A DNA stretch of 64,000 nucleotides from a virus: the IMG/VR virus record IMGVR_UViG_3300046804_003780; one strand, 5' to 3'. A model generated the notes under the pieces. It saw only the letters and a program-made list of their open reading frames with translations, was not told the DNA's origin and ran no database searches. Below, piece after piece: positions 2,027-61,236 of the stretch (position 1 is its first letter; each line of letters starts with the position of its first letter). Position numbers and translations under genes: made by a program.

Positions 2027-5000
2027 TTACTTTATACCACTTAATTTTTTCCACTGATTTAACATTTCTTCACTTTCAGTCATTTTAACTGCAGTGTATG
2101 GTAATGTAGTTTGATCACGTTTTTCCTTGTTTAGTCCACCTGCAAGTGTTTTAATCAAGTACTTTATATCTTGCATTGAAGTATCATCTGCACCATTTGC
2201 TAATTCTTCTTCAATAGGACGTGCGCTCTCAAGATTTTCATTTTTTTGATCTTTTTGTCTTTCCTTATCGTTTGAATCAGCTTTTACAAAAGTTGTAGTA
2301 GGATCATCTTTACCTGGAGTAAAGGTTGTTCTTACACGATAGCCAGGAGCTGGTACATATTCCGTTTTTCCGTTTGATGAATAAATATGTCCTTTAGGAT
2401 CAGCGTATGTGCCTTCAGCTTCATTCATTCCATGCCCACATTCTCCTTCATACATACCACATTCTTGACACATTCCTTCAGTCATTTCTTCATTGTATTC
2501 TTTTACAAATCTGATACGACCTTGATCATCAACTGAAGATTGCTGGGACCCTGCTGTTGGGCCTTTGTATTGTAAACGACCCTTATCATCGACAGACGAA
2601 CGTTGTGGTCCGGCTGTATCTCCCTTAAATTGTAAACGACCTTTGTCATCAACTGATGATTGTTGAGGCCTGTCTGTGTCTTTAAACTGTAAACGACCTT
2701 TGTCATCAACGGATGAACGTTGTGGACTAGGATTCTTTGGGTCTCTCATATAGTGAATACGATCTTGATCGTCTACTGAACTTGAGTTAGGTCTATCCGT
2801 ATCTTTAAATTGTAATCTACCTCTATCATCTACCGAAGATTTCTGTGGACTAGGATTCTTTGGATCTCTCATATAATGAATACGATCTTGATCATCAACA
2901 TATGACGATATTTCACGTTCCTCATTTACTTTTTCTTCTTCATGATCTTCATCATTAGAGCCTTCTTCAGCCTCATCCTTCTCCTCGTTTTCATCTTGTT
3001 CCTCTTCTTCGTAATCTTCTGAGTCATGCTCATCATGCTCTGGCTCTACTTCCATGCTATTAGCATGGTCTTCGTCCTCAATATTTAAACCAGTTAGTTT
3101 TTTCATTAATGATAAAATATCGTCTGAGCCTGATCCTTCAGAATCTCCTGATATAGGTGCTCCGTATGCAGACAACATTTGTTCAGGTTCAACAGCCATA
3201 ACAGACGATTCAGGGCTTGAACCAACAGAATCTATTCCTGCATTTTTAAGTAGCGCCATTATTTCTCCTGCATGTTCGCCACTCGCAGTAATGCTTACAC
3301 TGTTTTCTGTATCATTATCACCTTGAGTTGTAGTGACAGTTAAACTTTCATTTATCATTTTTTCTAGTTGATTATCCCATAATGAGAAGTCTAAATTTTC
3401 TTTCATAGATTCTTTTCCTTTAGATGGTTTGTTGATATCGACGGCATTAGGATACACTGGTTCACTTATGCTCAAGCCCTTTGGAGGCGTAACCATCTTA
3501 CCCGTTTTAGGATCTCTGTATGGTTTTTCTCTATCTGTTATGCTTTCTGGTGGTTCTTTGCTCATCGGTGATAAATTTTTTATTTTTTCAACTTTAGGCT
3601 CATCAGTGTCAAATTTAGGTATTTTTGCTGGATTATATCCACTACTACCTGGCTTTCCACCTGAACCATCAGACCATTTGCGAGAATCCCATGCATCTTT
3701 TTTACTTTGTTCGTAATCATTATATGCATCTATTCCTTTGTTGGCAAATTTTTTCAACGTGTTTAATACGCCTGAATCTGATTGTGGTTCATTATCACCG
3801 TACAATCTTGATGCACCTGGTCCGTCTTCATCTACTTTTTTGTCACTATATCTGTTATGTTTGGCTCTAATTCTATCCATTTCTTTTTCGCTAGCACCGT
3901 CTTTTCCCGCCTGAGCTAATTCTTTCATTCCTGGACCATATTTCTTCCATCCTTTAGCATGTTGACTCATGGCTTCGTCAACTTCTTCAGATTCTTTAAC
4001 AGGAAAAGTTTCGCCACCTAATTTAAAGCTTTCATCACCTGATGCTTTAGCCTGTCTCGCAGCATAAGTGAATGGATTTTCTTCTAATGGTTCTTCTACT
4101 ACCGTTTGAGACATCATAGGAGATTCGCCCATTAATTTGTCTTTACCTTTGTAACGATGAATTTCTAAAGCATCACGTAAATTGTCGCCCATATGACCTG
4201 TTGCTTTAAATTCAGCTATTTCCTGCTGTAATCCTTCAAGCATTTCTTCAATGCTCATCTGTGTTTCACGCATCATTTCTGCGAAATTAACACCTTCTTT
4301 TAGTTTACCTGCTTTTTTGGCTGCTGCAATACGACTACCTTGATATTCATCTTTACCTGATTCAATCTTGCCGTCACCATCGTAATCTTTTTTAGCTTTT
4401 TCTGCTTCGCTTACTTTTTTCTTAGCTCTTAGTTTAGCAAAATCCTTCGCATCTAATTTACCTTTTGGTTCTGCAACGTCAAGATTTTTTTGTCCACCCT
4501 TTAATGCTTCTTTTACATTTGCTGAACTAACTGATTTACCTGCTGCTTTCATGTTAGCGTCATATTCACTCTTACTAACAGGTTTTTTATTAACTGTATA
4601 GTTTTCTTCTTTAATCTTCTTAGCGATTTCATGACCCTTCTTAACTACACTCTTTGGAAGATCAGTTGCTGGTTTTGAACCATAGCCAGCTTGCTTTTTA
4701 GCAGCAGCCATTCCAATAGCATATTTGTTTTTAACTTTTTCTTCAAGATTGAATTTTTGCTTTATATCATCTTTTCTAGTTTCAATATCTTGTTTGTGCA
4801 TCTTACCTGCTTTTGTAATTCTTGCTTTGAATTTATGTTTTAAATCATCATAACCGCTATAATCATGACCAGGACGACCAAAGTGCATTTTCTCTTCACC
4901 TGCTTCAACTTGATCAGCAATCTTATCTCCAAATTCAATTCTAATTTGATTTAAAATTTCTGGGGCTTCATCATAGTCATCGTAATCTAAGCTATTTGGA

Positions 5001-7240
5001 TCGGTAGCTGATTCAAAATCGCTAATTAATTCTTTTAATCTAGCTTTTTTTCTTGGATCCATACCTTCAATTATAGATTGCACTTCATATGATTCATTAA
5101 TAGATTGCTCTGTATACTCCACCCAATCTTTTAGCGTATGCTTTTTACTTGGTAAGTTTGATTTACCTTTAGGTGCTTTGCCACCAATGATATGTTTGGC
5201 TGCATCATCTGCACCTTTATATTTACCAGCCTCTACATTACTATCTTTCTTAGGGCGACCGCGGCCTTTTTTCTCTGCTGGCTCGGCTTTGGCTTTAGTT
5301 TTCTCGTCACCTTCTTCGTCAGTGTCGTATTCTTTGCCATACTTACCAGTATGTTTTTTGCCTTTAATATCGGCCATTTTTGCTGCTTCATCTAATAATG
5401 CAAGCATTTGTCTCATGTCTAAGTTCATAGTTGACTCCACAATTTCTTTTTTACTAATATTTGCTAAATTTACGATGCGATTTAATGATTCATTGACTGG
5501 TGCCATTCTTCTTCTATCTTGAAAGTTTGGATCTCTGTCACGATTCATTCTGTCTTGTAATCTATCACGCAATCTAGTTGCCCTATCGTCAGGTTCCGAT
5601 TTTCTTTCTGCTGGAGGAGGTGCATAATTTGTTGTGTCATCCCTTCCACTAGCAGCAGGACCTCTATCTACATCACTGTCAGTTTTTCTTGTCCTAGTGT
5701 CTGTTCCAGTTTTTTCTGTATCTCTAGGTAATTCGTTTCTATCACCCTTATCAAATTTAGGGTAAGCAATTTTTTCATCACCGTAATTAATTAAATCACC
5801 TTTGTCCGAATCAGCTCTTCCTTCTCCATCCTGTGATTTTTTTTCAGGTTCTGGCTTAGGTTCTGCTTTTTTAGCTTCTGGTTCTCTAGCTGGTTCTGGA
5901 TCTGGTTCTTTTGAGGGTTCAGGTTCCTTGGAAGGCTCAGGAGTGGTAAATAAATTTTTCAATAATCTTTTTAATAAATCATCTTCATCTTCTTCTGGTT
6001 CAGGCTCAGGAACTGCTTGCGTAGTTTGTTTAGTTTCTTTATCATCTACCTTGTCTGCTTCTGCTTCCTCTTCCTCATCATCATCTTCAACTTCCCAAGA
6101 ACTAGGTTCATTTGTGGTCATTACTGGTGAATCTTTTTTTGGCTCCTCTGCCTTTTTAGCTGCTTCTTTTTCAACTGGTTGCTTCTTTTCTGGTTTAACC
6201 GGTTCTGGTTTAGCTGTAACTACTACAGGAGGTAATGATTTATCACTATCAACTTCACTGTCATTTGACATTGTTGCAGTCATGGCTTTATTATCAGGAG
6301 TTGTTGCTGCAGCAGCATCAGTTGCCATTAATGATCCAGGATCAATTAAATTTACAGTCATTGGTTTATCTGAATCGCCGCGTTGCGCAAATTGTGATTT
6401 CTCTGCTCCTGATTTTTTCTCATCAGGTTGTATACCTGCTAAAAGCGCAAGTAAGGCTGCATGACCACCTACACTTGTAGCTAATGCTTTTTTATCTTGT
6501 GGTGTTAATGCGCTCTTTATACCACCTGGCACAGCTGCCAAATCTTTTAATGCACTCGGTTCAGGAGGAGGATCATATTTTCCTGTTTTTGAATTCCATT
6601 TGTATCCAGCTGGAATAGGATCACCACTAAGTGTAGTTCTTTGTGTGGGTGCTGAAGGTTCTTGTGATGTTGGTTCTGCTTTAGCTGGTTCTCCCTTATC
6701 TTTTTCAGCTTTTTTTGGTTCAGACTTTCTTGGCTTAAAACCACCACTTACACTTCCTGGTTCTTGTTTAAATCCTTGACCTTTTAAAAGTTGTTCTGCT
6801 TTTTCTTGTGGAGTTAATTGTTTAGGTTGTGTTTTTGTTTTACCTACAATCGGATAATCCGTGTCGAGTTTATAATCTGTTTTTTTGACTGGTTCTTTAT
6901 CTGGGCTAGTTTTTTTATCGGCTTGTGCCTTTCTTTGCACAGCTGGAACACGACTTATTTCTGGGCTTGGTCGTACTAATTCAGGTGGTGTATCAACACG
7001 TTTAATAACTGGTTCTTGTTGTGCCTTAGAAGGTTTTACTTGTGTTGGTGTTTTTAATATTTGTGGAGCTAATTCTCTAGCTGATTGCGGTGTCATTGAA
7101 GGCGCCCTACCCCCACTACCACCTATGTATCCACCAGCACGGCCGCCACCTCCCATTTCAGGACCTGAACGACCACGATTGATCATATCCATCGGATCAG
7201 TCCATTCAGTTATCTTTTTCGTGATATCTTTTGATTTCAT
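2027..7240 (-). CDS. Large charged low-complexity protein, probable capsid-internal polyprotein
   Basis: 1737-aa ORF, K/E/D/P-rich, many [LIVM]xE motifs, internal SSVDDxGR repeats, ends WKKLSGIK; last gene of a late operon, followed by a terminator. Confidence 0.6.
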   Translation of the reverse strand: MKSKDITKKITEWTDPMDMINRGRSGPEMGGGGRAGGYIGGSGGRAPSMTPQSARELAPQILKTPTQVKPSKAQQEPVIKRVDTPPELVRPSPEISRVPAVQRKAQADKKTSPDKEPVKKTDYKLDTDYPIVGKTKTQPKQLTPQEKAEQLLKGQGFKQEPGSVSGGFKPRKSEPKKAEKDKGEPAKAEPTSQEPSAPTQRTTLSGDPIPAGYKWNSKTGKYDPPPEPSALKDLAAVPGGIKSALTPQDKKALATSVGGHAALLALLAGIQPDEKKSGAEKSQFAQRGDSDKPMTVNLIDPGSLMATDAAAATTPDNKAMTATMSNDSEVDSDKSLPPVVVTAKPEPVKPEKKQPVEKEAAKKAEEPKKDSPVMTTNEPSSWEVEDDDEEEEAEADKVDDKETKQTTQAVPEPEPEEDEDDLLKRLLKNLFTTPEPSKEPEPSKEPDPEPAREPEAKKAEPKPEPEKKSQDGEGRADSDKGDLINYGDEKIAYPKFDKGDRNELPRDTEKTGTDTRTRKTDSDVDRGPAASGRDDTTNYAPPPAERKSEPDDRATRLRDRLQDRMNRDRDPNFQDRRRMAPVNESLNRIVNLANISKKEIVESTMNLDMRQMLALLDEAAKMADIKGKKHTGKYGKEYDTDEEGDEKTKAKAEPAEKKGRGRPKKDSNVEAGKYKGADDAAKHIIGGKAPKGKSNLPSKKHTLKDWVEYTEQSINESYEVQSIIEGMDPRKKARLKELISDFESATDPNSLDYDDYDEAPEILNQIRIEFGDKIADQVEAGEEKMHFGRPGHDYSGYDDLKHKFKARITKAGKMHKQDIETRKDDIKQKFNLEEKVKNKYAIGMAAAKKQAGYGSKPATDLPKSVVKKGHEIAKKIKEENYTVNKKPVSKSEYDANMKAAGKSVSSANVKEALKGGQKNLDVAEPKGKLDAKDFAKLRAKKKVSEAEKAKKDYDGDGKIESGKDEYQGSRIAAAKKAGKLKEGVNFAEMMRETQMSIEEMLEGLQQEIAEFKATGHMGDNLRDALEIHRYKGKDKLMGESPMMSQTVVEEPLEENPFTYAARQAKASGDESFKLGGETFPVKESEEVDEAMSQHAKGWKKYGPGMKELAQAGKDGASEKEMDRIRAKHNRYSDKKVDEDGPGASRLYGDNEPQSDSGVLNTLKKFANKGIDAYNDYEQSKKDAWDSRKWSDGSGGKPGSSGYNPAKIPKFDTDEPKVEKIKNLSPMSKEPPESITDREKPYRDPKTGKMVTPPKGLSISEPVYPNAVDINKPSKGKESMKENLDFSLWDNQLEKMINESLTVTTTQGDNDTENSVSITASGEHAGEIMALLKNAGIDSVGSSPESSVMAVEPEQMLSAYGAPISGDSEGSGSDDILSLMKKLTGLNIEDEDHANSMEVEPEHDEHDSEDYEEEEQDENEEKDEAEEGSNDEDHEEEKVNEEREISSYVDDQDRIHYMRDPKNPSPQKSSVDDRGRLQFKDTDRPNSSSVDDQDRIHYMRDPKNPSPQRSSVDDKGRLQFKDTDRPQQSSVDDKGRLQFKGDTAGPQRSSVDDKGRLQYKGPTAGSQQSSVDDQGRIRFVKEYNEEMTEGMCQECGMYEGECGHGMNEAEGTYADPKGHIYSSNGKTEYVPAPGYRVRTTFTPGKDDPTTTFVKADSNDKERQKDQKNENLESARPIEEELANGADDTSMQDIKYLIKTLAGGLNKEKRDQTTLPYTAVKMTESEEMLNQWKKLSGIK
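2505..2910 (-). repeat. Seven coding tandem repeats (19-23 aa) with core S-V-D-D-x-(G/D)-R-(L/I)-x-(F/Y)
   Basis: SSYVDDQDRIHYMRDPKNPSPQK / SSVDDRGRLQFKDTDRPNS / SSVDDQDRIHYMRDPKNPSPQR / SSVDDKGRLQFKDTDRPQQ / SSVDDKGRLQFKGDTAGPQR / SSVDDKGRLQYKGPTAGSQQ / SSVDDQGRIRF. Confidence 0.95.
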
Positions 7241-7452
7241 TTTCTACTCAAATCAATCTTATTTTCTATACGATCTAACTGCTGTTGCAATGAACTTAGC
7301 TTTTCATTCATTGCTTCTGCCCTTGCATTGGATACTTCAATTTTTTTATCTAATTCACCTACAGTAGAAGTCATAGTAAGGTAGCCACCGCCTCCTAAGC
7401 TACATGCTCCAACTACTATCCATGTTAATTGACTTGTGCTAAAATCGATCAT
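7237..7452 (-). CDS. Small membrane-anchored coiled-coil protein
   Basis: N-terminal hydrophobic segment (LTWIVVGACSLGGGGYL) then a heptad-rich tail ending LDRIENKID; 4-nt overlaps with both neighbours. Confidence 0.6.
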   Translation of the reverse strand: MIDFSTSQLTWIVVGACSLGGGGYLTMTSTVGELDKKIEVSNARAEAMNEKLSSLQQQLDRIENKIDLSRK

Positions 7453-8051
7453 TTGTTAAAACTAGCTCCTGTTTTAGGTTTAGGCTGTCTAGTAACATGT
7501 GTCATTGGACTCTTTGTTTGAATGCCCTCTTTAGTTTTGTTAGGAGCAGATGTTGTTTTTCCTGCACTGTATTCATACTCAAATGTTGGTTTCTTAGGTA
7601 CAACTTTGTCAAGATATTGATTAGCATAATCTTTGCTTGCTTGTTTACCATCATCTTCTAATTCTGTGTGCAATAGAAGTGGACTATGGCTTGCTTCATT
7701 AGCGTATTGGTCGACCTCATGGTTAATGCTGTCATTATAGTCAGTGGTAATTAGTCGTACTTGATTAACATTTTTCCCCATTAATTGAATCATTTGCTGA
7801 ATCATTGGTTCTGTAGCTGGATACTTAAACTCACATTTAATTATAGTTACTGGTTCGTTTTCTACATCAGGAAATCCATATGGATTCTTTTGAATAGGCG
7901 TAGTTTTAGGATCCTCAATTTTTACTGGATCAAACTTTTTTAGGTTCATACGTAGTAGGTCTAAAAACTTACTATCTACGTCTCCTGCTATTTTTAGCGT
8001 GTAACGATATGTACGCACACTTTCTACTAAGTATTGGCGAAAGGTTTTCAT
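7449..8051 (-). CDS. Hypothetical virion/head protein with T4 capsid-targeting-like N-terminus
   Basis: Starts MKTFRQYLVE-S (compare T4 internal protein MKTYQEFIAE); late promoter at 8071. Confidence 0.55.
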   Translation of the reverse strand: MKTFRQYLVESVRTYRYTLKIAGDVDSKFLDLLRMNLKKFDPVKIEDPKTTPIQKNPYGFPDVENEPVTIIKCEFKYPATEPMIQQMIQLMGKNVNQVRLITTDYNDSINHEVDQYANEASHSPLLLHTELEDDGKQASKDYANQYLDKVVPKKPTFEYEYSAGKTTSAPNKTKEGIQTKSPMTHVTRQPKPKTGASFNK

Positions 8052-24362: not shown

Positions 24363-27300
24363 TTAGGTTATGCCCCAACCATTAATATACCAAGTATTTG
24401 CTGCTACTTTAACTAAGGTAGTATCTGCATAAGCTGCTAGTGTTCTTGTTCCTGTGGTTCCTTGATATCTAAGTGTTACCCCAACAGCAGGTAATACAGT
24501 AACATTTTGGAAAGCATCACCATTTATAAGACGAATTTGTGTTCCAAAAGGAAGCACTGATGTTCCATCACTTTGAATATTTAAATTAGTACCTCCTGGT
24601 TGTCCTGCAAAATAAAGTAATGTATCTGAATCATCTACGGCTAAGGTGTAGCTTGAATTTTTTGTCTGAATAGGTGATATTCTATAACCAATTCGAGCAT
24701 TTCCGCCTGCTGGTATTGCTACGTTGCTAAAAGCACCACTGATGTTTAAGTTACCAGGTACAAGAGTATCACCAACTGAATCAAGTAGGGTAAGAGTTCT
24801 GGTTAATGTACCGAACGGATTGCCACCACTGTTAGTATATTGTCTAACATAGATAGGTTCATTACCATTATCTGCAGTATCAATAGATATGAATCCAGAA
24901 TTAGCACCTGTACCGCCGACTTGTATTCTATAAAAGTCATCCGTTGCTATACCGCCATACAATGCATTAGCAGTGTTTGATCCCGATAGTGTTGGGGTTG
25001 TGATATTAGCAACTACCTGCGGTGCACTTACGGTACCTGATGCACTTACTAGACCACCAACACTCAAACTACCAGGAATTGAAGTGTTACCACCACTATC
25101 TAATAAAGTTAATGAACGTGCTACTGTACCGTATGGATTTCCACCCGACTCAGTATATTGTCTAACAAATATTGGTTCAGTGCCTTCATTTGCTGTATCA
25201 AACGATACAAATCCTGCATTACTGCTTGACCCACCAACTTGAATTCTAAAATAATCATTGTCAGCGATTGTAGTGTTTAAAATATTTGCAGTGTTTGTAC
25301 CCGACAGTGTAATTTGTAGATTACCAGTAAATGTATTAGCTGTAATGTTATTGGCAGTAGATATATTGCCTACAACTGACAAACTGCCTGGTAAATTTGT
25401 ATTTCCAGTACTATCTAAAAGAGTGAGTGTTCTTGGTGTTATTCCATTAAATTGTCTAAAGAAAATTGGTTCATTTCCATTATCACCAGTTTCAAATGAT
25501 ACGAATCCATTATCCGTTGATGTTCCTCCAACAACGACTCTAAAGTAATCACTGTCTGCAATATTTGAAAGAATGATATTAGCGTTAGTTGTTCCTGTTA
25601 GATTTGCTGTTGTTAATAAACCTCTTATATTGCCACCAATAAAGTTATTTGCTGTAAAATTATTTGCGGTTAAATCACCACTTAGTGTTACGTTACCAAA
25701 TAAATTATTTGCAGTGATATTACCAGTTAGAGACATATCACCTGAATATGTTAATGGACCTGTTCCTGCACGACCTAATCTAGCAGAATTGTTGCCATTA
25801 CCGAATACTACATAACCATTAGCGATATTACTTTGACCACTAATCATTAATGTTTCAGTTACACCAATATCACCTATCCAAGTTGTGGTACCAACTCTAA
25901 AGTTATTACCACTTCCAGTAGCACTTGATATGATTATATTACCAGTAACATTACCAGTCACACTTGAACTTGTGCCTGTTGCACTAGTAATCACAGCCGA
26001 AGTAGCAGTTAAGTTACCTACTAGATTTGCAGCAGTTACATTGCCTGTTACAGATACAGCATTTCCTGTAAAATTATTACTTGTTATATTTCCTGAAGGG
26101 TTAGAAATATTACCTACTACACATAAGTTCGCACTAGTCCTCATGTTTCCAAAAGATTCAATGAGACCTGTAGCTGAAATATTAGCTGGAGTTGTTATGT
26201 TACCATTTGCACTTAGTGTACCTGAACTTAAAATAGAACCTGCAGTAATTCCAGAAACAACGCTTAAATTAGATGATCCAATTATATTACCTGTAGCTGA
26301 AATAATTGCAGCAGCAACAATATTACCACTTACACTTAGATTTGGTACGCTTAGTGATCCGCCTGCACTTATTGCTCCTGTTACAGATATACCGCCGCCA
26401 ACTGAAACAGTTCCTGGGAATACAGTGTTACCTGAATTACTTAGAAGAATTACCTCACGATTAAGTGCTGCATATGGGTCAACTTGTGTAGAGATATATT
26501 GTCTAACAAATATAGGTTCATTGCCTTCATTGGCTGTATCAATAGACACATATCCTTGATCAGTACTACCCCCAATTTGAATTCTAAAATAATCACTTCC
26601 GGCTACTGTCGTGTTAATAACATTAGCAACTACACCACCTGCTACTGACATCGACAAATTACCAACAAAGTTATTTGCAATGACATTTGAAGTCGTTGTG
26701 ATATTAGCTGTAACTGATAGATTGTTCGGTAAAATAGTATTACCGTTAGGATCAAGTAGGGTTAATGTGCGAGTAGGTGCAGCTCCAGTAAATTGTCTAA
26801 AGAATATCTGCTCATTGCCGTTATCACCTACGTCAAATGCAGCAAATCCCGCATCAGCAGCAGTTCCACCTACAGTCAGTGCAAAGAAATCACTTGTAGC
26901 TATATTGGCACGAATTAGTTCAGCATTACTTGTTCCTGTTAATGCATTTACTGTTAATCTACCTACAAAATTACCACCGAAGAAATTATTAGAACTAAAG
27001 CTATTTGCATTTACATCCGAGTTTGCAAAAGTAAAGTTACCTACAAAATTATTTGCTGTAATAGTTCCAGTAGCACTCATATTACCAGTGTAAGTGAGTG
27101 CTCCTACACCATTACGGCCAAGTTTAGCAGCATTGTTGCCATTACCAAATACAATAAATCCATTTGCAGGGTTAGCTATTCCAGTAATTCTAACAGTATC
27201 AGCGTCAGTAATATCTCCTAACCAAGCTGCATTGCCAACTCTGTAATTATTTCCTGTTCCTGTACCGTTTGAAATAAACAAGTTACCTGTAACATTTCCT

Positions 27301-30300
27301 GATACGCTTGAAGTTGTACCTGTAACGTTACCTATGTTAGCATTATTAGCAGTTAAATCACCTACTAAGCTTGCAGCAGTTGCGGTGCCAGTGATACTTA
27401 CTGTATTGCCAATGAATCTGTTGCCAGTTAAATTTCCAGTTGCACTTATATTTCCACCAAGATTTATATTTCCACTTGCTGAAATATTAGCTGTCGTATT
27501 AATGTTGTTATTTGTGGTTATAAAACCATTTGCGTATATGTAAACATTACCAGTAGTACCAACTCTTAATTCAGTATTTGCCTGTACATATGTAGCAGAA
27601 GTTACTGTATTCCCTCTAATGTCGTCACCAAAAATTAATCCATTATTAGCAAAAATATTTCCATTATTAATACGTAAAGCACTGCCTACACCAGTTATAT
27701 TGATATTACTGGCTACATTTACATTCCCGCTTGCACTTATACCGCCTGTGGCTGTTATTACACCAGGGAAGAATGAATTACCATTTGCATCAAGTACAAT
27801 AACTTCTCTACTAATACCACCAAAAGGATCACTACCTACAATAGTGTATTGTCTTACATAGATAGGTTCATTTCCATTATCCGCTGTGGCAATCTCTAAA
27901 AAGCCTTGATCACTAGCTGTGCCACCAGCTTGAATACGGAAAGCATCTGTACCAGCCATTGTTCCCTGAACGATATTAGCTGAATTAGTACCACTAACCG
28001 ATGCAGTCAAAGTGCCAAATATTCTATTAGCTATGACGTTTCCTGCTGTGCTTAAATTACCACTTGATGTTAAATTAATATTACCTGGTACAGAAAGATT
28101 TTTATTAAGAATTGTGTTACCAGAACCATCAAGTAACGTCAAATTACTAGTTACAGTTGCGCCTGTGTATTGTCTAAAGTAGATTGGTTCAGTGCCTTCA
28201 TCACCAGTTGAAAATTCTACGAATCCTTGGTTAGTACCTGTTCCACCTACAGTTAATTCAAAATAATCGTTATCAGCAACATTACCTCGTATTAGCACTG
28301 CTGTATTAGAGCCTGTTAAATTATTAGAAATTAACCTACCTATAAAATTGTTTGAGGTAAAACTATTAGCTATTACGTCACCGTTGCTAAAGTTAAAGTT
28401 TCCAACAAAATTATTAGCTGTTACATTGCCACTTAGTGACATATTTCCTGTGTATGTAAGTGGACCTGTTCCAGCACGCCCTAAGCTTTGTGAGGAATTG
28501 CCGTTACCAAATACGATATAACCATTTGCTGCGTTAGCATTACCCGTTAATAATAATGTATCATTAATACCTATATCACCTAACCAAGCTTTGTTAGAAA
28601 TTCTAAAAATATTAGGAGTATTATTTTGTGCTGCAGTAACTATATTACCAACGGATGTTAAAGTATTTGTAATTACATTATTACCATTAATGTTACCTGA
28701 TACAGAAACTACATTACCTAATAGGCTAGCACCAGTTATGTTACCTGATATAGAAACTACATTACCTAATAGACTAGCACCAGTTATATTACCTGATGCA
28801 GAAATGGTTGTACCTGTAACTAATCCAGTTGCAGTAATATTGCCAGTAGATAAAATTCGGGAAGCCTGTACATCTTGTGTAGTAATAATATCATTACTTG
28901 CTCTTATATTGCCTGTAGCAGAAATATTATTTGCAAAAATATTTGCATTTGAAGTAATAGTTGTAGCAGTTAATGATGGAGTAGTTATATTGCTTGTTGC
29001 GCTAACATTTCCAGTCGTAAATGTTCCTGCTACATTTATATTACCAGTTACGCTTAAACTTTTTGCTATACTTACATTTCCAGGAATTGATGTATCACCA
29101 CCTTGATCTAATAAAGTTAGGTTTGACTGAACAGTGGTAAATCCGTTTCCATAAAACTGCCTAAATTGTATTACTGCATTAGCATTACTTGAACCATCTC
29201 CAGTATCGAAAGACACAATACCTCGGTTCGTAGTATTAGCGATAGCACCTAATTGTATTCTAAATGAATCAGTGCCAGCCATTGTACCACTTACAATATC
29301 TACGGCTGTTGTTGAAGTAGCAGGAGAACTAACTAAATTACCTCTAAAACTGTTTGATACAGCATCCTCAAATCTTGAAACACCATTTGCATCTAAAATA
29401 GTAACTTGGTGTTCAATATTTGACCCATTATACTGTCTGAAGTAAATTGGTTCATTGCCTTGATCGCCTGTGTCGAATGAAACAAAACCTTGATCACTGC
29501 CTGTTCCACCAACTATGACTCTAAAATAATCATTATCAGCAATATTGCTACGTATTAATTGGAAGGTACTATTTCCAGTAATTGTATTAGTTGTAAGTGT
29601 ACCAACTAAATTTCCACCAAAGAAATTATTAGATGTAAAGCTATTTGCATTAACATCAACGTTAGCAAATGTAAAATTGCCTATAAAATTGTTTGCTGTA
29701 ATAGTACCGTTCGCACTTATATTGCCAGTATATGTAAGTGGTCCAGTGCCAGCACGACCTAATGTCTGTGAATTATTACCAGTACCAAAAATTATATAAC
29801 CATTTGCAGGGTTATTTTGTCCTTTTATAATTATTGTATCAGCAATATTTGCATCACCTATGAATGCACGGTTACCAACAGCAAAATTGTTACCTGTGCC
29901 AGTGCTTGTAGAAATAAAGTTATTCGCTGTAATATTAGCTGTAAGACTTGCATTATTACCTGTGTAACTTATTACGTTTGCTAAACTTGCTGATAAATTA
30001 CCAGATAAGCTTGCACCTGAAACTGTACCAGTTACGCTGACTGTATTTCCTGAGATTACATTACCACCAATATTAGAAGCCGCATTACCTATAATAGGGG
30101 CCTGTATAAAGGAAGTCGCAAAAAGATTTACTAAATTTGCATTAGTTCCACTGAAATTACCTGTGATGTTACCTGCGTTTATGTTACCTGTCGTGCTAAT
30201 ATTACCAACAAGACTTGTAGCCGTAACTGTTCCAGAAACACTAACACTTGTTCCTAAGAATCCTACAGCAGAAACTTGGTTAGGAAAAACAGCATTTCCT

Positions 30301-33300
30301 TGTGAATTTAAAAGTGTAACTCGTCTTAATTCTGTAGCAAAATTTGCACCTGTAAACTGTCTGAAAAACACTTCTTCAGAACCTTCATCACCAACATCAA
30401 ACGCAACATAACCATTATCAGATGTTGGACCTCCTAGTTGAACTCTAAAATAATCACTACCTGCCATTGTTGCATTTATAATATTAGCAGTTTGTGGCGC
30501 AGGTACAAATGCAGTTAAATTACCAATTAAGTTACTTGCTGCAACATTTCCAGTCGTAGTAATGTTACCAGGGAAAACTGTGTTGCCGCTTGCATCAAGT
30601 AATGTAACCTGTCTTTGTATATTAGGTCCATTATATTGTCTAAAGAATATTGGTTCTGACCCATTGTCGCCGGTGTTAAAGGATACATATCCAGAATCTG
30701 CTCCGGTGCCCCCAACTTCTAGACTAAAATAATCTGCATTTGTAGGACCTGCAACGTTTGCTCTTATAAGTTCAAAAACATTATTACCTGTAACTGTTGT
30801 AATTAATCTACCGCTAAAATTACCACCGTTAAATGTATTTGAAGTGAAGCTATTTGCACTCAAATCAGTATTTGCTACATTTATATTACCTACAAAATTA
30901 TTTGCTGTTATAGTACCACTGACAGATAAGTTACTATTCCAAGTTAGTGCTGCTGTACCACTTCTACCCAATCTAGCAGTTGAATCTGAACCGAATGTTA
31001 TATAACCAACTGTGTCATTTTGTTGGCCTCTTACAGCTAATGTATCGACTACGTTACGATCTCCCAACCATACACTGTTTCCAACTCTAAAGTTATTACC
31101 TGTGCCTACATTATTAGAATGGATTACACCGTTAGCTGTAACATTGCTTGAGACACTTATGTTACCAATATTTAAAACAGGTGATGTAATACTTTGAGCA
31201 TTAACGTTTGTTACTTGAATAGTATTAACGTTGGTTATATTTGCATTTGAGTGGATTCCTAATAATCCACCTAATATTATACTACCATTACTTGAAATTG
31301 CAATTATATTTGCATTGGCGTTACCTGTTGTAATTGTATTAGCAAAAATACTTAAAGTGCTGTTTGATGTGTTTGCTGCATTGCTAGACAATGTGTTCGC
31401 AAATACTGCTGGAGTTGTAACATTACCTGTTATATTTGCAAATGGTGCTGTAACAGTATTGGTCGCAGTTATGTTACCATTATTTGCAATTATATTACCA
31501 TTTACTGTTACATTTGCATTATTAATAGTTTGAATTATAGACCCACCAGCACGTAAAACAATTTCCCCATTGCCAGTATCACCATTTGTAATTACGATGT
31601 TACTTGTGCTACGACCAAAAATATTACCTGTAATTTGAGTAATATTGGCTGCAGGAGAATTAAATGAACCATTTATTGAAAGAGCTCCTGCTATTGTAGC
31701 ATTACCGCCTGAAAAAATATTACCACTTACACCCATACCACCTGTAACAACTAATGCTCCAGTTGTGGTTGATGTCGATACTGTACCTGAACGAACTCTA
31801 AATCCTAAATTAGCTTCGCTTTCAATACTTACAGAAACTATATAATTTGTACCATCACTCCATACATCAAAAATTTGTCCTGTTGCATATGTTATGGTTA
31901 TAGTTCCTGTGCCAGTATATCCAGAACCTTCAAATGTCCCACTAGGTGACACTAAAGATACGAATTGTCCACCAGTTCTTAATCTAAAGACAAAACTAGC
32001 TCCTTGATTTCCTAAAGGATTTGGTAAAGTTATGTTATAATTGCTGCCAGTAATATTTACTAATGCGCCTGACCTTGATAAGGGCAGTGTTGTTGCTGAA
32101 CTTACACTAAGATATGAACCAATTAGTCCACTTGTGTTTATAATACCCGAAGCATTTATATTAGTTACATTGCCTAAATTACCTGTATAATTTGGTAAGA
32201 AATTAGCTACATTTCCATCATTGTAAACATTTGTGTTTACACCTGTGAGGAAAGCGCCATTACCAAATAAGAAGGCACCCGTAATATTGCCTGCTGCACT
32301 TAATACATTTGCTGTTACACGATTTCCAGCAGTTATATTTTCAAATACACTAATATTGCCACCAAATCCAGAATCAATTGCTACGCTAAAGTTACCAGGT
32401 GAGATTGTAGCTACACTTGCACCACCAACCGTAACACTTATATTACCATTTGCTACAGGAATATTAATATTACTAACACCATTTGCAATACGTGCAACGT
32501 TAGCTGTTACGTTTGTAAGTAGTGCTCCATTACCTACAAATTGATTGCCTGTAATAGTACCTACAGCAGATATACTACCACTTGCTAAAATATTGTTACC
32601 TGACGCTATATTTCCAGCAGCACTTACAAGATTGGTAGCATATAAATTACCTACGTTGGCATTTGCAGATGCAGTTATGTTAGCACCATTTATGTTACCT
32701 GTTGTGCTAAGAGCGTTGCCAATAATATTATTTCCGTTAATATTTCCAGTAACTGATATATTACCAGATCCACTTAAAAGATTACCTAAATTAGCAGAGC
32801 CAATATTAAGTTGTCCTGTTATTGTTGTAGTACCAGTTACTGATAAATTTGCACTTGTTGAAATGTTTCCTGTTGCACTAATTGTACCAGCTGTCGTAAT
32901 ATTTTGTCCAGTTACGGTACCTGCTGCGCTTAATGCACCTGCTAAATTAAGGTTTGAATTTGAAGAAATATTTCCTGTTACACTCAAATTACCATTTAAA
33001 TTAGCTAATTGAGGCGATATAACTAACACATTAGGTGTGCCACTTACACCAAAGTTAATATTACCTGCATTAATAGGAATTCTTACATTACTTGATCCAT
33101 TTGCAATTGCTGTCCCTATTGACGGTGTAGTAAAACTTAAATTACCTGCTCCATCAGTAGTTATTACATCTCCTGCATTCCCTCCAAGTATGTTAAGACT
33201 ATCTATATTTGCTAGGTTTGCATTACCTGTAAGCGATAATTCACCTCCAACTCTAACACCTGTCGCTGTTACAGTAAAGACATTTGCAACACTTTGTACA

Positions 33301-36300
33301 CTGATTGTTACATTAGCATTAGGATTAACAACAACATTACTATTGCCACCTACTATTTGATTTGATGCTGGTAATGAACCAAATGTTAAGTTACCATTTG
33401 CGTCAACAACAGTTAGTACTTGATTTGCAATACCACCTGTTACTTTTAATCTAGCTATGTCAGTTAAAATATTACCGTTCGCAGTTAAACTACCACTTAC
33501 ACTCACTCCAGTGTTACTAAATATAGCAGATGTAACACCGGTAGCTACTATGTTAACAGGACCATTAATATTTTGAATGTTTACATTACTTGTACCGTTA
33601 CTGATTTGTGATGTGGGTGGACTTGCTACCCATGTAAGATTACCTTGTCCATCAGTAGAAAGCAATTGATTAGCCGCGCCACCTGTAATAGTTACATTGC
33701 CTATAGGACCTAAGTTTGATCTACCTGAAACAGTGATTCCCGTATTTGCAACTACAAATACGTTCGCATTACCTGCCACACTTGTACGCACATTGCCACT
33801 TAGATCAATAGTTATATTACTTTGTCCATTTGATATTGATGGTGCGATTGGTGCGGGTGCGAATGATATATTTCCAGAACCATCAGTTATAATAATGTTG
33901 TTAGCATTTCCACCTTGAATTTTAACGTTACTAATATTTCCTAAATTAGCAAGGCCAGTATTTACTATACCCGTTGCACTTACTGTGCTTGTAATAATAC
34001 CAGTGTTAGTAAACTGGGTAACATTAGGGGTACCAGCAACACTTACTCTTATATTTGTATTAGCACCAACTACTATATTACTACTACCATTGACGATACT
34101 TTGTGTTGCTGGTGCTGAAGCCCAACCAATTAAACCAGCGTTACCTGTTGTAGTTAATACCTGACCTGTTTGTCCACCTAAAATCCTTAAGTTAGCGATA
34201 GTGCCTAAGTTTACAGGAGCGAAAAAGTTTACTGCTTCATTAAATACTGCGTTTACATTACTAGCAAATGTCGATTGTTCTACTCTAATTCTATTAGCGA
34301 AGCCAGCAACTGTAAATTCTATATTAGCATTTTCTTCAATATTAATAGCACTAAGTCCATTAGCAACTCTATTTGCTGTAGGAGAAAGCCAAGATAAATT
34401 ACCTACCCCGTCTGTTGATAAAATTTGACCTTTAAGGCCTCCTAATATTCTAAGATTTGAAACCTGCCCTAATGCTACATTTGAAGTAAATTCAAAATTA
34501 ACGTTACCAGTAATATTACTTACAGTAAGATTGTTTAAGTTTCCTAAATCAGTGATATTATTTTGACTAGGTGACGTAAGAATTCCAGAAATAAAGTTTG
34601 CAGTTGCTAGATTCCCTAAGTTTGCATTACCTGTTCTAAGATTACCAACCACGCTTAATGACGTTAAATTACCCACTGCAGTAATATTTGCCTGTGATGC
34701 AAATGTAACAGTTGTTGCTACTAATGCATTAGGTACTTGTCCAGTTACATTAGCGCCAGGAATACCAAATAATCTTGAGGCATTTCCAGAAAACGTACCG
34801 CTTGTTACTCCATTACTCTTGTTAAAAGTAAGTGCTGATGAAGCTCCAAACACTCCATTGTCATTAAATTGAATACTTGTATTTGATCCAGCTGCTGGAA
34901 TAACTGCTGTTATGTTCGAGAATGACAAATTACCACTTCCATTTGTCACAAGAACCTCATTGTTGTTACCACCAAAAATTCTTAAGTTTGCTATGCTTCC
35001 TAAATTGGCTAAGTTACCTACTGTTAAATCATTTACAATCCCAGAAGAAATTATAGTATTTGCTGCATTAATAGTTAACTGATTTACGTTAGAGGTAAGT
35101 GATGTTTGACCTATTGCCACACCGACGTTACTTACTGCTAAACTGCGATAACTATTAGCAGGAGTACCTAAATCGTAAGTATTTCCAATATTTGGAATAA
35201 GATTAGATTGAACAAAATTTGCAACTGCTAAGTTATTAACAGTTGCATTAGAATTTATTGTCAGTGTATTAGCATTTAACGCATTGGATTGAATTGTACC
35301 AAATGCGCTAATATTTGAAGTAGATATTAAATTTGCTACATTCGCTAAATTACTAACAGTCAATCTATTAGCAATTGTTATATTATTACTTGAAATGTTT
35401 GCATTTACAGATAGATTGCCGGTTGAATTTAAATTTGCACCTGTAATGTTTCCGTTGGCAGTTACTAATCCGCCAGTTATAAGATTACCAACTGTAGCGT
35501 TTGCAACTATATTAGTAGTATTTGCATTAAGTATGTTAGACTGAATATTTGCGCTAGCAACAATTGAACCATTGGCACTGATATTGCTTAAAAAGGATGC
35601 ACCGTTTACAGTAAGCGTATTTGATATTGTTGTTAAAGGTAAGTTTGCATTTCCTGTAACACTTAGATTACCTGTTTGTATATTAGTGGTTAAAATATTA
35701 CCTGTAACATTAAAAGCTGAAGTAGTTAAAGAAGTTGCATTTAATGATGTTATATTTGCATTATTTGCATTTAAATTACTTACATTTGATGTATCAGCAG
35801 TCAGCAATCCAGTGATTGCAAAAGAGTTTTGACTTATTACTACTACATTTTGTGTATTGTTAACAGTAAAATTAATTGCATTTGTTGAAGGAATAATGAA
35901 AGTGTTTGTACCACTTGCCAAATTACCTCTTAAATTACCTAAAAAGAAATTAGCTACAACAGCATTTCCTAAACTTGCATTTGAACCTGATACTGTACCT
36001 GTTGTACTAATGGCTCCTGTTGCTGATAAACTTGCTACCTGTAAACTACCGCCTATCGTAGCATTACCTGATGCACTTAATCCTGTTGTATTTACATTTG
36101 CTGTTACACTTATATTTCCAGTGGAATTTACATTTGCTCCAACAACATTACCATTAGCAACAATTCCAGTAATACTCAACACACCGGATATATTTGCATT
36201 ACCCAAATTAGCATTATTCGCAACAAAGTTTCCTGCTGCTGTAATATTAGATGTTGATGATATGTTTCCAGTTACACTTAAATTGCCTGCAGCGGTTATA

Positions 36301-59523: not shown

Positions 59524-61236
59524 TTAATTTATTCCAGAAAGTTTCTTAATTCTAGCTAGCAATGGATCTACACTTTCAAATCCAACTGCGTAACCCTTAA
59601 AGGGATGTTGTTTTGGTTCTTTACCAAGTACTGGGCTGATGCCTTTTGCCTTTTTCGTTGGTCCTAATTGTTTTGCTTTTGTTTGTTGTTTGTTTAATGA
59701 TTCATCAACATTTTGGTCTATACCAGCTTCGATTTCCTCTAAGTAGGCGTCAAGTATTTGTTGAACATCTTGCAAATCTATATTAACCGCTTTTGCAATT
59801 TCAGGATCACGATATCCTTTAATTGCAAGTTCAACTATTTTACCAATTAATTCTTCATCTAATTCTCTATCATTTTCCATTACAGGGGCTGCAGGTTGTT
59901 GAGGCATTTGTGGCGCAGGTTGAGGAGCAGGCGCTGGCGGGACTTGGGCTGCCGGTGATGGTACCTGTATATCACCTTTCATAATACTTTTAATTTCATT
60001 GGCTAAATCATGCAAGTCATGGTCGTCTGTGCGTTGCGCCCAACTTAAAATAACCTCACGTGCATCTGCATCCACATCAGTTGATGCTAATTCATCTAGT
60101 TCACCAAATAAATCTTCATTTTCTAGGTTATATTTTGATAAAATATTTTTTGCATTTATTGCATCGTCACCAACTGGTATTTCTTCCGTAAACTGTGCTG
60201 CTAAATCTTTTATTTGTAAATTATTATGTGGCTTAAGTTTTTCATTAATTATATTGTTCGTCCATTCTTCTAATTCGGTAACCTCATCAATTTTACCTGA
60301 CACTTTATGAATGCGTACTAATACCGGCATCGCTCTTTCAATACGTGGATCTATACTAGAACTCATAAACATTTCTGCAAGATCAGGTTGACCGATTCCC
60401 ATATCTTCATTAAGTGTAGGAGTCCAATTTTCAAAGTAGGTATTATACCCACGTTTACCTGCTAATTTTTGTAATGACTCACGCAACTTAAGATAATGTT
60501 CTACCCCTTCATTTACTAATACTTGCGTACTTTCGTTAAACTGTCCGTTACGTGTGGCGCGTACAAATCCTGCCATACTAGTATATTCTTCAACTAAATT
60601 GTGAATATGATTCCAACGGTCATCATTTACTTTTCCACCTTCTGCAATATGTCTTGCATAGATTCTTGCTATTCCTGGTTTTTTAGTATCTAACAGAAAT
60701 CTTTCTCCGTTAACGTTTTCTAAATAAATTTTTTCAACGTTTCTAAAACGCTGCATTCCCTCTTCCATATTCTTACTGTGTTGAATTTTTATCTTTACGT
60801 TTGGTACACTATCATTTAAACTTATTCGTCTTCCTAATGGATGATATCCTTCACTGATATTTTTACTATCTTCTCTCTTAGCCATTTCATCCTCTAAATT
60901 TCCAATATCATCACGCTCATATCCAAGTTGGTGATCATGTGCCCAATTTTTAATATAATTTGAAACTTCATTGAAAGACATTCCATCTTTATCTTTGCTA
61001 TGATTAGGGCTATTCAATACCTCATCCTCAGGCCAAACCACTACGTTTTTGCCTATAACTGCGGTATACACTTGTCCATAGTCTACGTCATCCATTTTGA
61101 AATCAAACTTAAAAACATCAGTCATCTTACTTAAAGGAACTGGTTTACCTGCGGAGTTTAATCTAATTGGCCTAAATCCTTGGGTTTTTAAAAAGTTATA
61201 AAGTTGATCTTGTAATGATTCTTCTTTAATTGGCAT
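59524..61236 (-). CDS. Hypothetical late/head-associated protein
   Basis: 570 aa, R.(V/I)EKIYLEN..GERFL motif, multiple [LIVM]xE motifs, ends RIKKLSGIN; late promoter 61260. Confidence 0.65.
   Translation of the reverse strand: MPIKEESLQDQLYNFLKTQGFRPIRLNSAGKPVPLSKMTDVFKFDFKMDDVDYGQVYTAVIGKNVVVWPEDEVLNSPNHSKDKDGMSFNEVSNYIKNWAHDHQLGYERDDIGNLEDEMAKREDSKNISEGYHPLGRRISLNDSVPNVKIKIQHSKNMEEGMQRFRNVEKIYLENVNGERFLLDTKKPGIARIYARHIAEGGKVNDDRWNHIHNLVEEYTSMAGFVRATRNGQFNESTQVLVNEGVEHYLKLRESLQKLAGKRGYNTYFENWTPTLNEDMGIGQPDLAEMFMSSSIDPRIERAMPVLVRIHKVSGKIDEVTELEEWTNNIINEKLKPHNNLQIKDLAAQFTEEIPVGDDAINAKNILSKYNLENEDLFGELDELASTDVDADAREVILSWAQRTDDHDLHDLANEIKSIMKGDIQVPSPAAQVPPAPAPQPAPQMPQQPAAPVMENDRELDEELIGKIVELAIKGYRDPEIAKAVNIDLQDVQQILDAYLEEIEAGIDQNVDESLNKQQTKAKQLGPTKKAKGISPVLGKEPKQHPFKGYAVGFESVDPLLARIKKLSGIN

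Follow-up and report, generated by a model that had tools for sequence, protein, structure and literature searches.

An uncultured freshwater jumbo phage (IMG/VR record IMGVR_UViG_3300046804_003780) encodes, in a 64,000-nucleotide stretch of DNA that we call the window, a protein that may copy the motor-binding end of the force transducers TonB and TolA. The protein, P0001, is the 1737-amino-acid (aa) product of a late open reading frame (ORF) at positions 2027-7240, as given by the ORF list and its translation; this ORF and all other features placed in the window below lie on the minus strand. Its module, at aa 252-345 (about 245-345), consists of a helix, a charged linker, a strand, and a second strand and is followed by a spacer, and its layout appears to follow that of domain I and the start of domain II in TonB/TolA. 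Our preferred reading, which we hold tentatively and with somewhat less than even confidence, is that the module is a convergent TonB/TolA-like anchor, carried by a probably capsid-packaged and ejected protein, that truly docks to the ExbBD or TolQR motors. The best explanation of the resemblance is a functional mimic that arose through convergence or very old divergence, not through recent gene capture, and the proposition that it functions in the manner of the TonB/TolA motor-binding end has survived all of the sequence-level tests that were run. An earlier note on this DNA had proposed a captured or mimicked TonB N-terminal half, and every string that it quoted was found in P0001 where the note had placed it.

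The helix carries the Ser and His of the proposed motor contact. In the SHLS motif of TonB and TolA, the Ser and His are structurally conserved contacts to ExbB S34/W38 and TolQ S28/W32, and the Leu and second Ser are less conserved (PMC12215075). The Ala/Gly-rich hydrophobic helix of P0001, ALATSVGGHAALLALLAGI (aa 252-270; 6431-6487), places S256-x3-H260-x6-L267 on one face, the arrangement that the earlier note had read as Ser, His at +4, and Leu at +11. It is, as was claimed there, the only long hydrophobic stretch of the protein and its sole hydrophobic 19-mer, with a Kyte-Doolittle (KD) mean of 1.72 and a next-best value of 0.76. Moreover, its hydrophobicity is close to that of the E. coli TonB helix (KD, 1.72 versus 1.84; Hessa sum, +2.6 versus +2.5). 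AlphaFold2 places helices, at low confidence, at aa 247-267 and aa 272-286, with a further short helix at aa 419-431 and a mean pLDDT of 50.6 for aa 225-470.

The strand that follows the helix has the format of the second motor contact. The juxtamembrane linker, (Q)PDEKKSGAEKSQFAQRGDSDK (aa 271-292; 6365-6430), is charged, conserved, and predicted to be helical, and it leads into KPMTVNLIDP (aa 292-301; 6338-6367), within which P-MTVNLID-P (aa 293-301; 6338-6364) is a Pro-delimited alternating beta-strand motif of the D-box or motor-box kind. The D-box of TonB, residues 43-54 (QPISVTMVTPAD), is a strand with Pro on its flanks, and the ExbD dimer buries its alternate hydrophobic side chains (PMC10907165); the counterpart in TolA is the "motor box" (PMC10907165, PMC12204202). 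P-MTVNLID-P shares with TonB P44-ISVTMVT-P52, at the level of the motif only, the Pro-x7-Pro frame and hydrophobic residues at positions 1, 3, and 5. The resemblance is thus stronger than the earlier note knew, because PMTVNLIDP fits an experimentally defined ExbD-binding element. Behind the strand, an Ala/Thr/Ser-rich linker of variable length and low conservation (aa 302-335; 6236-6337) leads to the second strand.

LPPVVVTAKP (aa 336-345; 6206-6235) is a second Pro-delimited strand that resembles the core of a Ton box, LPPVVVTAK itself being aa 344 and the eight residues before it (aa 336-344; 6209-6235). The earlier note had called it TonB-box-like, and the VVVTA core is indeed present and rare, with 2 occurrences in 918k aa of E. 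coli ORFs, but the acidic-Thr start of Ton boxes is replaced by Pro-Pro. As in group B colicins and TonB-dependent transporters, a Gly/Pro-rich disordered region holds a short conserved xxVVVTA-type strand that is a candidate for beta-augmentation; unlike in Ton-box ligands, which start with D/E-T, the phage motif lies 336 residues from the N terminus, and a Ton-box role is putative. PPVVVTAKP has no counterpart in TonB or TolA and may be a second beta-augmentation epitope. The module then gives way to Pro/Glu/Lys-rich and acidic spacers (aa 346-470; 5831-6205) that are predicted to be coil except for the short helix at aa 419-431. With KPEPVKPEKK (aa 344-353), VPEPEPEE (aa 410-417), and PEPSKEPEPSKEPDPEP (aa 434-450; 5891-5941), the Pro/Glu/Lys-rich segments span aa 344-470 and match the periplasm-spanning domain II feature of TonB/TolA.

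The ordered features of the module are retained in a family of 12 members (1076-1737 aa), all uncultured, that was assembled from IMG/VR, protein collections, and metagenome contigs, and every member with available context lies in the same gene neighborhood. The Ser and His singled out by the earlier note are conserved among the homologues: the His is invariant (12/12), and the Ser four residues before it is present in 11/12 (Asp in L007). At +7 from the His, all members have Leu except L003 and the near-identical L008, which have Ile, and the fourth SHLS residue, Ser or Thr, is found in only about 4 members. Invariant columns of the module alignment are HAAL in the helix core, DPG at the strand end, and P.V..T. 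The strand alternates hydrophobic-polar-hydrophobic-polar-hydrophobic in all members and has its flanking or upstream Pro in most, and the His-to-strand spacing is 27 to 34 aa in the family versus 25 in TonB and 28 in TolA. Within the disordered N-terminal 585 aa, conservation of 9-mers averages 0.55, and its highest peaks include PPVVVTAKP (0.88), which ranks first, TVNLIDPGS (0.85), and SVGGHAALL (0.80). The invariant columns and these peaks speak against a resemblance due to chance.

The orientation of the module also agrees with that of TonB and TolA. For the 10 members in which charge asymmetry was computed, net charge is 0 to +5 in the 30 residues before the helix, -3 to 0 in the 30 residues after it, and +14 to +23 over the N-terminal region as a whole. 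By the positive-inside rule, the helix of all 10 would therefore be oriented N-in, C-out, as in TonB/TolA. The most distant member, P0009 (a 1076-aa metagenome protein from a 4.6-kb contig; E = 2.5e-4 in the exhaustive profile search), has its N-terminal peptide duplicated and, in the same order, the helix, the strand, VLPPVVVTAEP, and the Pro/Glu/Lys spacer; an SLT lytic transglycosylase domain (PF01464; E = 7e-15; aa 511-611) comes next. Because the SLT domain must act in the periplasm, the C-terminal side of the module should be periplasmic, and P0009 fixes the orientation independently; a search for further SLT-bearing relatives of P0009 returned P0009 itself only. As judged from these alignments, five ordered features are under selection in a divergent family: the helix face with Ser and His, its spacing from the strand, the D-box format of that strand, the extended spacer, and the orientation.

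Where P0001 resides is suggested by its neighborhood and by its own composition. The window comes from a jumbo myovirus of the Atu_ph07/PA5oct/Rak2 supergroup and encodes a sheath, two tube-fold proteins, a head-closure protein, a large terminase, a DnaB-like helicase, UvsX, and a gp32-like protein, and the gene order from the sheath to P0001 is the same as in PA5oct. Just upstream, a 200-aa protein with the N terminus MKTFRQYLVE (7449-8051) is homologous to PA5oct gp282 (E = 3e-15), and P0001 occupies the position of gp281, to which its similarity is faint and C-terminal only. Both gp281 and gp282 were found in PA5oct virions by mass spectrometry. P0001 begins with a peptide, MKSKDITKKITE (aa 1-12; 7205-7240), that ends in I-T-E at aa 10-12 and whose MKSKDI is kept in all homologues; it may be a T4-type capsid-targeting or propeptide signal, presumably akin to the T4 targeting peptide. 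The motif [LIVM]-x-E, of the T4 prohead-protease type, occurs 33 times in aa 586-1737 (2027-5485), where 20 were expected (P about 0.0005), and 3 times in aa 1-585, where 7.5 were expected; the module thus does lie inside a segment poor in cleavage motifs, as the earlier note had said. This pattern fits processing by a T4-type prohead protease in which an N-terminal fragment is spared. P0001 is, moreover, predicted to be almost wholly disordered, and AlphaFold2 gives no confident domain in aa 577-1737 (mean pLDDT, 39.6). Taken together, the PA5oct synteny, the predicted disorder, the [LIVM]-x-E distribution, and the N-terminal peptide suggest that P0001 is packaged in the capsid and that an N-terminal fragment of about 570 aa is kept intact and ejected at infection.

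How such a protein could use a TonB/TolA-like anchor can be pictured as follows. P0001 would travel inside the capsid and leave it through the tail upon infection or, less likely, be inserted late in infection as a type II membrane protein. Its basic N-terminal 250 aa would stay on the cytoplasmic side, and the helix would enter the inner membrane, where the Ser/His face would dock on the outside of the host ExbB5 or TolQ5 ring as the TonB/TolA helices do. The strand would be captured by the periplasmic ExbD or TolR dimer through beta-augmentation, and PPVVVTAKP might serve as a further beta-augmentation motif, with the TonB C-terminal domain as a candidate partner. The outcome would be either that proton-motive force is coupled to the phage protein, for example for the delivery of genome or protein, or that the host TonB/TolA is blocked. 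The full scheme, in which the ejected protein puts its mimic helix and D-box into the ExbB5D2 or TolQ5R2 stator and the motor pulls phage protein and DNA through the envelope, or Ton/Tol is switched off, we regard as a conjecture that is rather unlikely to hold in all of its parts. Mimicry and each function proposed for it, whether jamming, energized entry, or exclusion, are matters that we infer.

Precedent for such an anchor exists in bacteria. Bacterial transducers are described that carry an SHLS helix, a motor box, and a linker but end in a vWA domain unrelated to TonB or TolA (PMC12204202), and the anchor is therefore a portable module. P0001 is like these transducers in that anchor and linker are joined to a C-terminal part that is not that of TonB or TolA; unlike P0001, however, they are bacterial, their helix is N-terminal, and they are encoded beside motor genes, whereas the phage carrier has no adjacent motor genes. 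A search of one literature library found no described phage protein that mimics the TonB/TolA anchor.

Several results weigh against docking to a motor, and the first of these come from sequence comparison. When 1.84 billion representative proteins were searched without filters, the module profile retrieved no TonB or TolA; apart from family members, it brought up just one relative with an SLT domain and two artefacts caused by repeats. No match to a shorter protein was found by phmmer at E ≤ 10, and neither the module against Pfam nor its profile against the PDB gave a TonB/TolA match. An alignment of the module compared with E. coli TonB and TolA by hhalign put the helix and strand motifs of both in functional register, which counts in favor of docking, but the statistical support was weak (P, 0.017 and 0.0095; probabilities, 3-4%). 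In a decoy set of 5176 ORFs (918k aa) from a six-frame translation of 1.52 Mb of E. coli K-12, plain HMMER did not raise TonB above background and ranked the TolA N terminus 9 to 12 of about 4000 domain hits. In favor of docking, a composite pattern, SxxxHx6[LIVM] inside a hydrophobic 19-mer and a D-box-like strand within 54 aa, matches TolA and TonB only among these ORFs, and the strict Pro-x7-Pro strand occurs there once, in TonB. The regular expressions were written after the sequences had been seen, however, so these counts measure specificity, not significance. The helix and the surroundings of the module also weigh against docking. The helix is weaker in the homologues (KD, 1.08 to 1.56; Hessa sum, +3.5 to +7.2), most of which fall under the usual transmembrane (TM) threshold, and the check for a TM helix is accordingly borderline: the copy in P0001 resembles that of E. 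coli TonB, but the homologues do not reach the threshold. The helix is preceded by 251 residues in P0001 and by 250 to 340 in the family, and the virion location of P0001 is drawn solely from synteny with PA5oct gp281/gp282. Finally, several other short motifs in the disordered aa 1-585 are conserved equally well, and for this reason the module might be a chance look-alike.

We conclude that no homology to TonB/TolA can be demonstrated. A profile comparison with TonB and TolA, which the earlier note had suggested, gave only one sub-threshold match and the two weak hhalign alignments. The match came from an unbiased scan of six module segments against all 18,950 NCBIfam models, in which TIGR02794 (TolA N terminus, profile positions 1-66) was the sole match for L005, one of the six segments (E = 0.0032), at 16.8 bits versus a cut-off of 59; this match counts in favor of docking. 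The module profile gave no candidates in the E. coli chromosome at the prefilter stage, and an ESM Atlas feature search gave no usable match. P0001 as a whole matched nothing meaningful in Pfam and PHROG and nothing in INPHARED phages by nucleotide and protein searches. The earlier note had seen no recognizable TonB C-terminal domain; the Pfam search of P0001 was likewise empty, and no TonB_C, TolA, or TolA_C domain was found in Pfam or NCBIfam. What the phage module shares with TonB/TolA is the Ser-x3-His-x6-Leu face on the helix, a charge asymmetry of the N-in kind, a linker that is disordered, a strand flanked by Pro, and an extended Pro/Glu/Lys region. The two differ in other respects. About 10 to 15 residues precede the helix in TonB/TolA versus 250 to 340 in the phage family, where the His falls at residue 260 to 343 and the helix is not at the extreme N terminus as in TonB and TolA. 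The phage module also shows no significant similarity and is joined to neither TonB_C nor TolA_C, its helix is less hydrophobic in most members, and it lies within a 1737-aa disordered late protein with no exbBD or tolQR genes nearby. Because significant similarity and the C-terminal domain are lacking and the helix is not N-terminal, membership of P0001 in the TonB/TolA family is not supported.

Nearly as likely as a motor-docking anchor, although by itself we consider it rather doubtful, is a generic role in which the module anchors an ejected virion protein, of the kind of the T7 core protein gp16 and the T5 tape-measure protein Pb2, in the inner membrane and tethers it in the periplasm. 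The helix would then insert in or perturb the inner membrane at genome delivery, the Pro/Glu/Lys region would cross the periplasm, and the Ser/His and strands would serve oligomerization or phage partners and not host motors, the likeness to TonB/TolA being coincidental. T7 gp16 and the T5 tape-measure protein have peptidoglycan-cleaving domains (PMC6116005), and the SLT domain of P0009 resembles them. A plain tether also fits the presence of just one hydrophobic segment in an otherwise disordered chain, the marginal hydrophobicity of that segment, which is typical of proteins that must stay soluble until insertion, the structural-gene neighborhood, and the lack of significant TonB/TolA similarity in the searches. 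Like T7 gp16 and T5 Pb2, P0001 is large, is encoded among structural genes, and combines a hydrophobic segment with a part that would act in the periplasm, and P0009 shares the SLT domain with T7 gp16 in particular; unlike them, P0001 has no recognizable enzyme domain and is predicted to be disordered almost throughout. We know of no TonB-like motifs described for T7 gp16 or T5 Pb2. What a tether leaves unexplained is why, of the polar residues in the helix, the His alone is invariant and has a Ser at -4 on the same face, and why a Pro-delimited alternating strand follows at TonB/TolA-like spacing in every member.

A possible phage partner for such a tether is at hand. An unlisted 71-aa ORF (7237-7452), which encodes an N-terminal TM segment, MIDFSTSQLTWIVVGACSLGGGGYLTM..., and a coiled coil, shares ATGA overlaps with both of its neighbors, the 200-aa gene upstream and the P0001 gene downstream. 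Its product, a small TM protein whose translation is coupled to that of P0001, keeps about 90% identity across all 7 related loci and is much more conserved than P0001 itself; it may act on the hydrophobic helix of P0001 as a membrane partner or as a chaperone. Against PHROG, it gave a weak match to the Rz-like i-spanin phrog_739 (E = 2.3e-4). The spanin-like neighbor also prompted the thought of a lysis cassette, but with so weak a match (E = 2e-4) and structural genes all around, that reading was kept as a side note only. A signal-arrest-release (SAR) endolysin or signal-anchor protein was rejected because the helix lies at least 250 residues from the N terminus, and a tape-measure role was judged less likely because the protein is predicted to be disordered and not a long helix.

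A further alternative, which we think improbable but worth stating, is that the motifs never contact a membrane and instead serve assembly inside the capsid, P0001 being an internal-head polyprotein in the style of T4. The motifs would then dock P0001 to scaffold, portal, or DNA or guide the prohead protease. The enrichment of [LIVM]-x-E in aa 586-1737 and its depletion in aa 1-585 fit such a role, as do the N-terminal peptide ending in ITE and the adjoining gene product, whose beginning, MKTFRQYLVE, resembles a T4 capsid-targeting sequence. So do the C-terminal KKLSGI motif that P0001 has in common with another virion protein, the many further conserved short motifs of the disordered region, and the helices that fall under the TM threshold in most homologues. 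The positive-inside charge asymmetry and the P0009 SLT domain, however, point to the membrane and periplasm, and packaging inside the head is in any case compatible with later action in the envelope. We note that MKTFRQYLVE itself ends in a cleavage-type L-x-E motif, and we take it to be close to the capsid-targeting peptide of a T4 internal protein (MKTYQEFIAE). We also note that P0001 ends ...WKKLSGIK (2027-2050), that a 570-aa virion structural protein ends ...RIKKLSGIN (59524-59560), and that (I/L)xxL(A/S/T)(G/N)(I/L) motifs recur within P0001 and PA5oct gp281 (ILRLAGV, SKLAGIS). The KKLSGI-type motif may be a common docking or processing signal.

The capture of a host tonB/tolA fragment by fusion into a structural gene, true homology in other words, is very improbable: the order of helix, motor box, and Pro-rich region, the sub-threshold TolA match, and the in-register hhalign alignments speak for it, but the profile search of 1.84e9 proteins held no TonB/TolA, no shorter protein reached E ≤ 10, no TonB_C or TolA_C remnant is left, and a capture would be too old to detect. 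The earlier note is thus supported in part: the resemblance is real, ordered, and conserved, but profile, phmmer, Pfam, and PDB searches gave no TonB/TolA match, the capture that it proposed is not supported, and the mimicry is putative.

Other features of P0001 and its surroundings are worth recording. Between the N-terminal peptide and the helix is a basic, Gly/Pro/Lys-rich disordered region with a net charge of about +16 (aa 13-251; 6488-7204), which by the positive-inside rule would be cytoplasmic. Near the C terminus, at aa about 1440-1575 (about 2510-2920), are tandem peptide repeats, SSVDDQDRIHYMRDPKNPSPQ.../SSVDDKGRLQFK..., that are confined to P0001 and L003, and other homologues have a short unrelated segment there. 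The P0001 family is mosaic, with modules inserted in some members and deleted in others, as a DUF3008-like module in P0004 and its relatives illustrates. The gene after P0001 (2-1927; L003:13121-15220) encodes a protein of about 700 aa that starts MAQEIIDFGSYPNDPDSDAIRVAFQK, an N terminus typical of tail-fiber or baseplate-attached proteins. Because this gene and, further on, fiber-like genes come after it, P0001 sits between the neck/head-completion genes and the fiber genes. Elsewhere in the window, one open frame of 4925 aa (24363-39140) encodes a giant fiber-like protein.

The Ton and Tol systems are parasitized from their outer-membrane end, where colicins and the g3p of filamentous phages bind the C-terminal domains of TonB/TolA, and phages T1 and phi80 require TonB. 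If a motor-docking anchor is real, P0001 would be the first case of a virus that mimics the motor-binding end of a force transducer instead of binding the transducer C-terminal domain, and copying the SHLS helix and the D-box would be a new route by which to tap or sabotage proton-motive force. By an old observation made for T4, the genome entry of T4-type phages requires a membrane potential, and the module would offer a testable handle on that need. Moreover, the recently defined D-box/motor-box module would be portable beyond bacteria. Even without a motor role, the module would be a conserved membrane/periplasm element in an unannotated family of giant disordered phage proteins.

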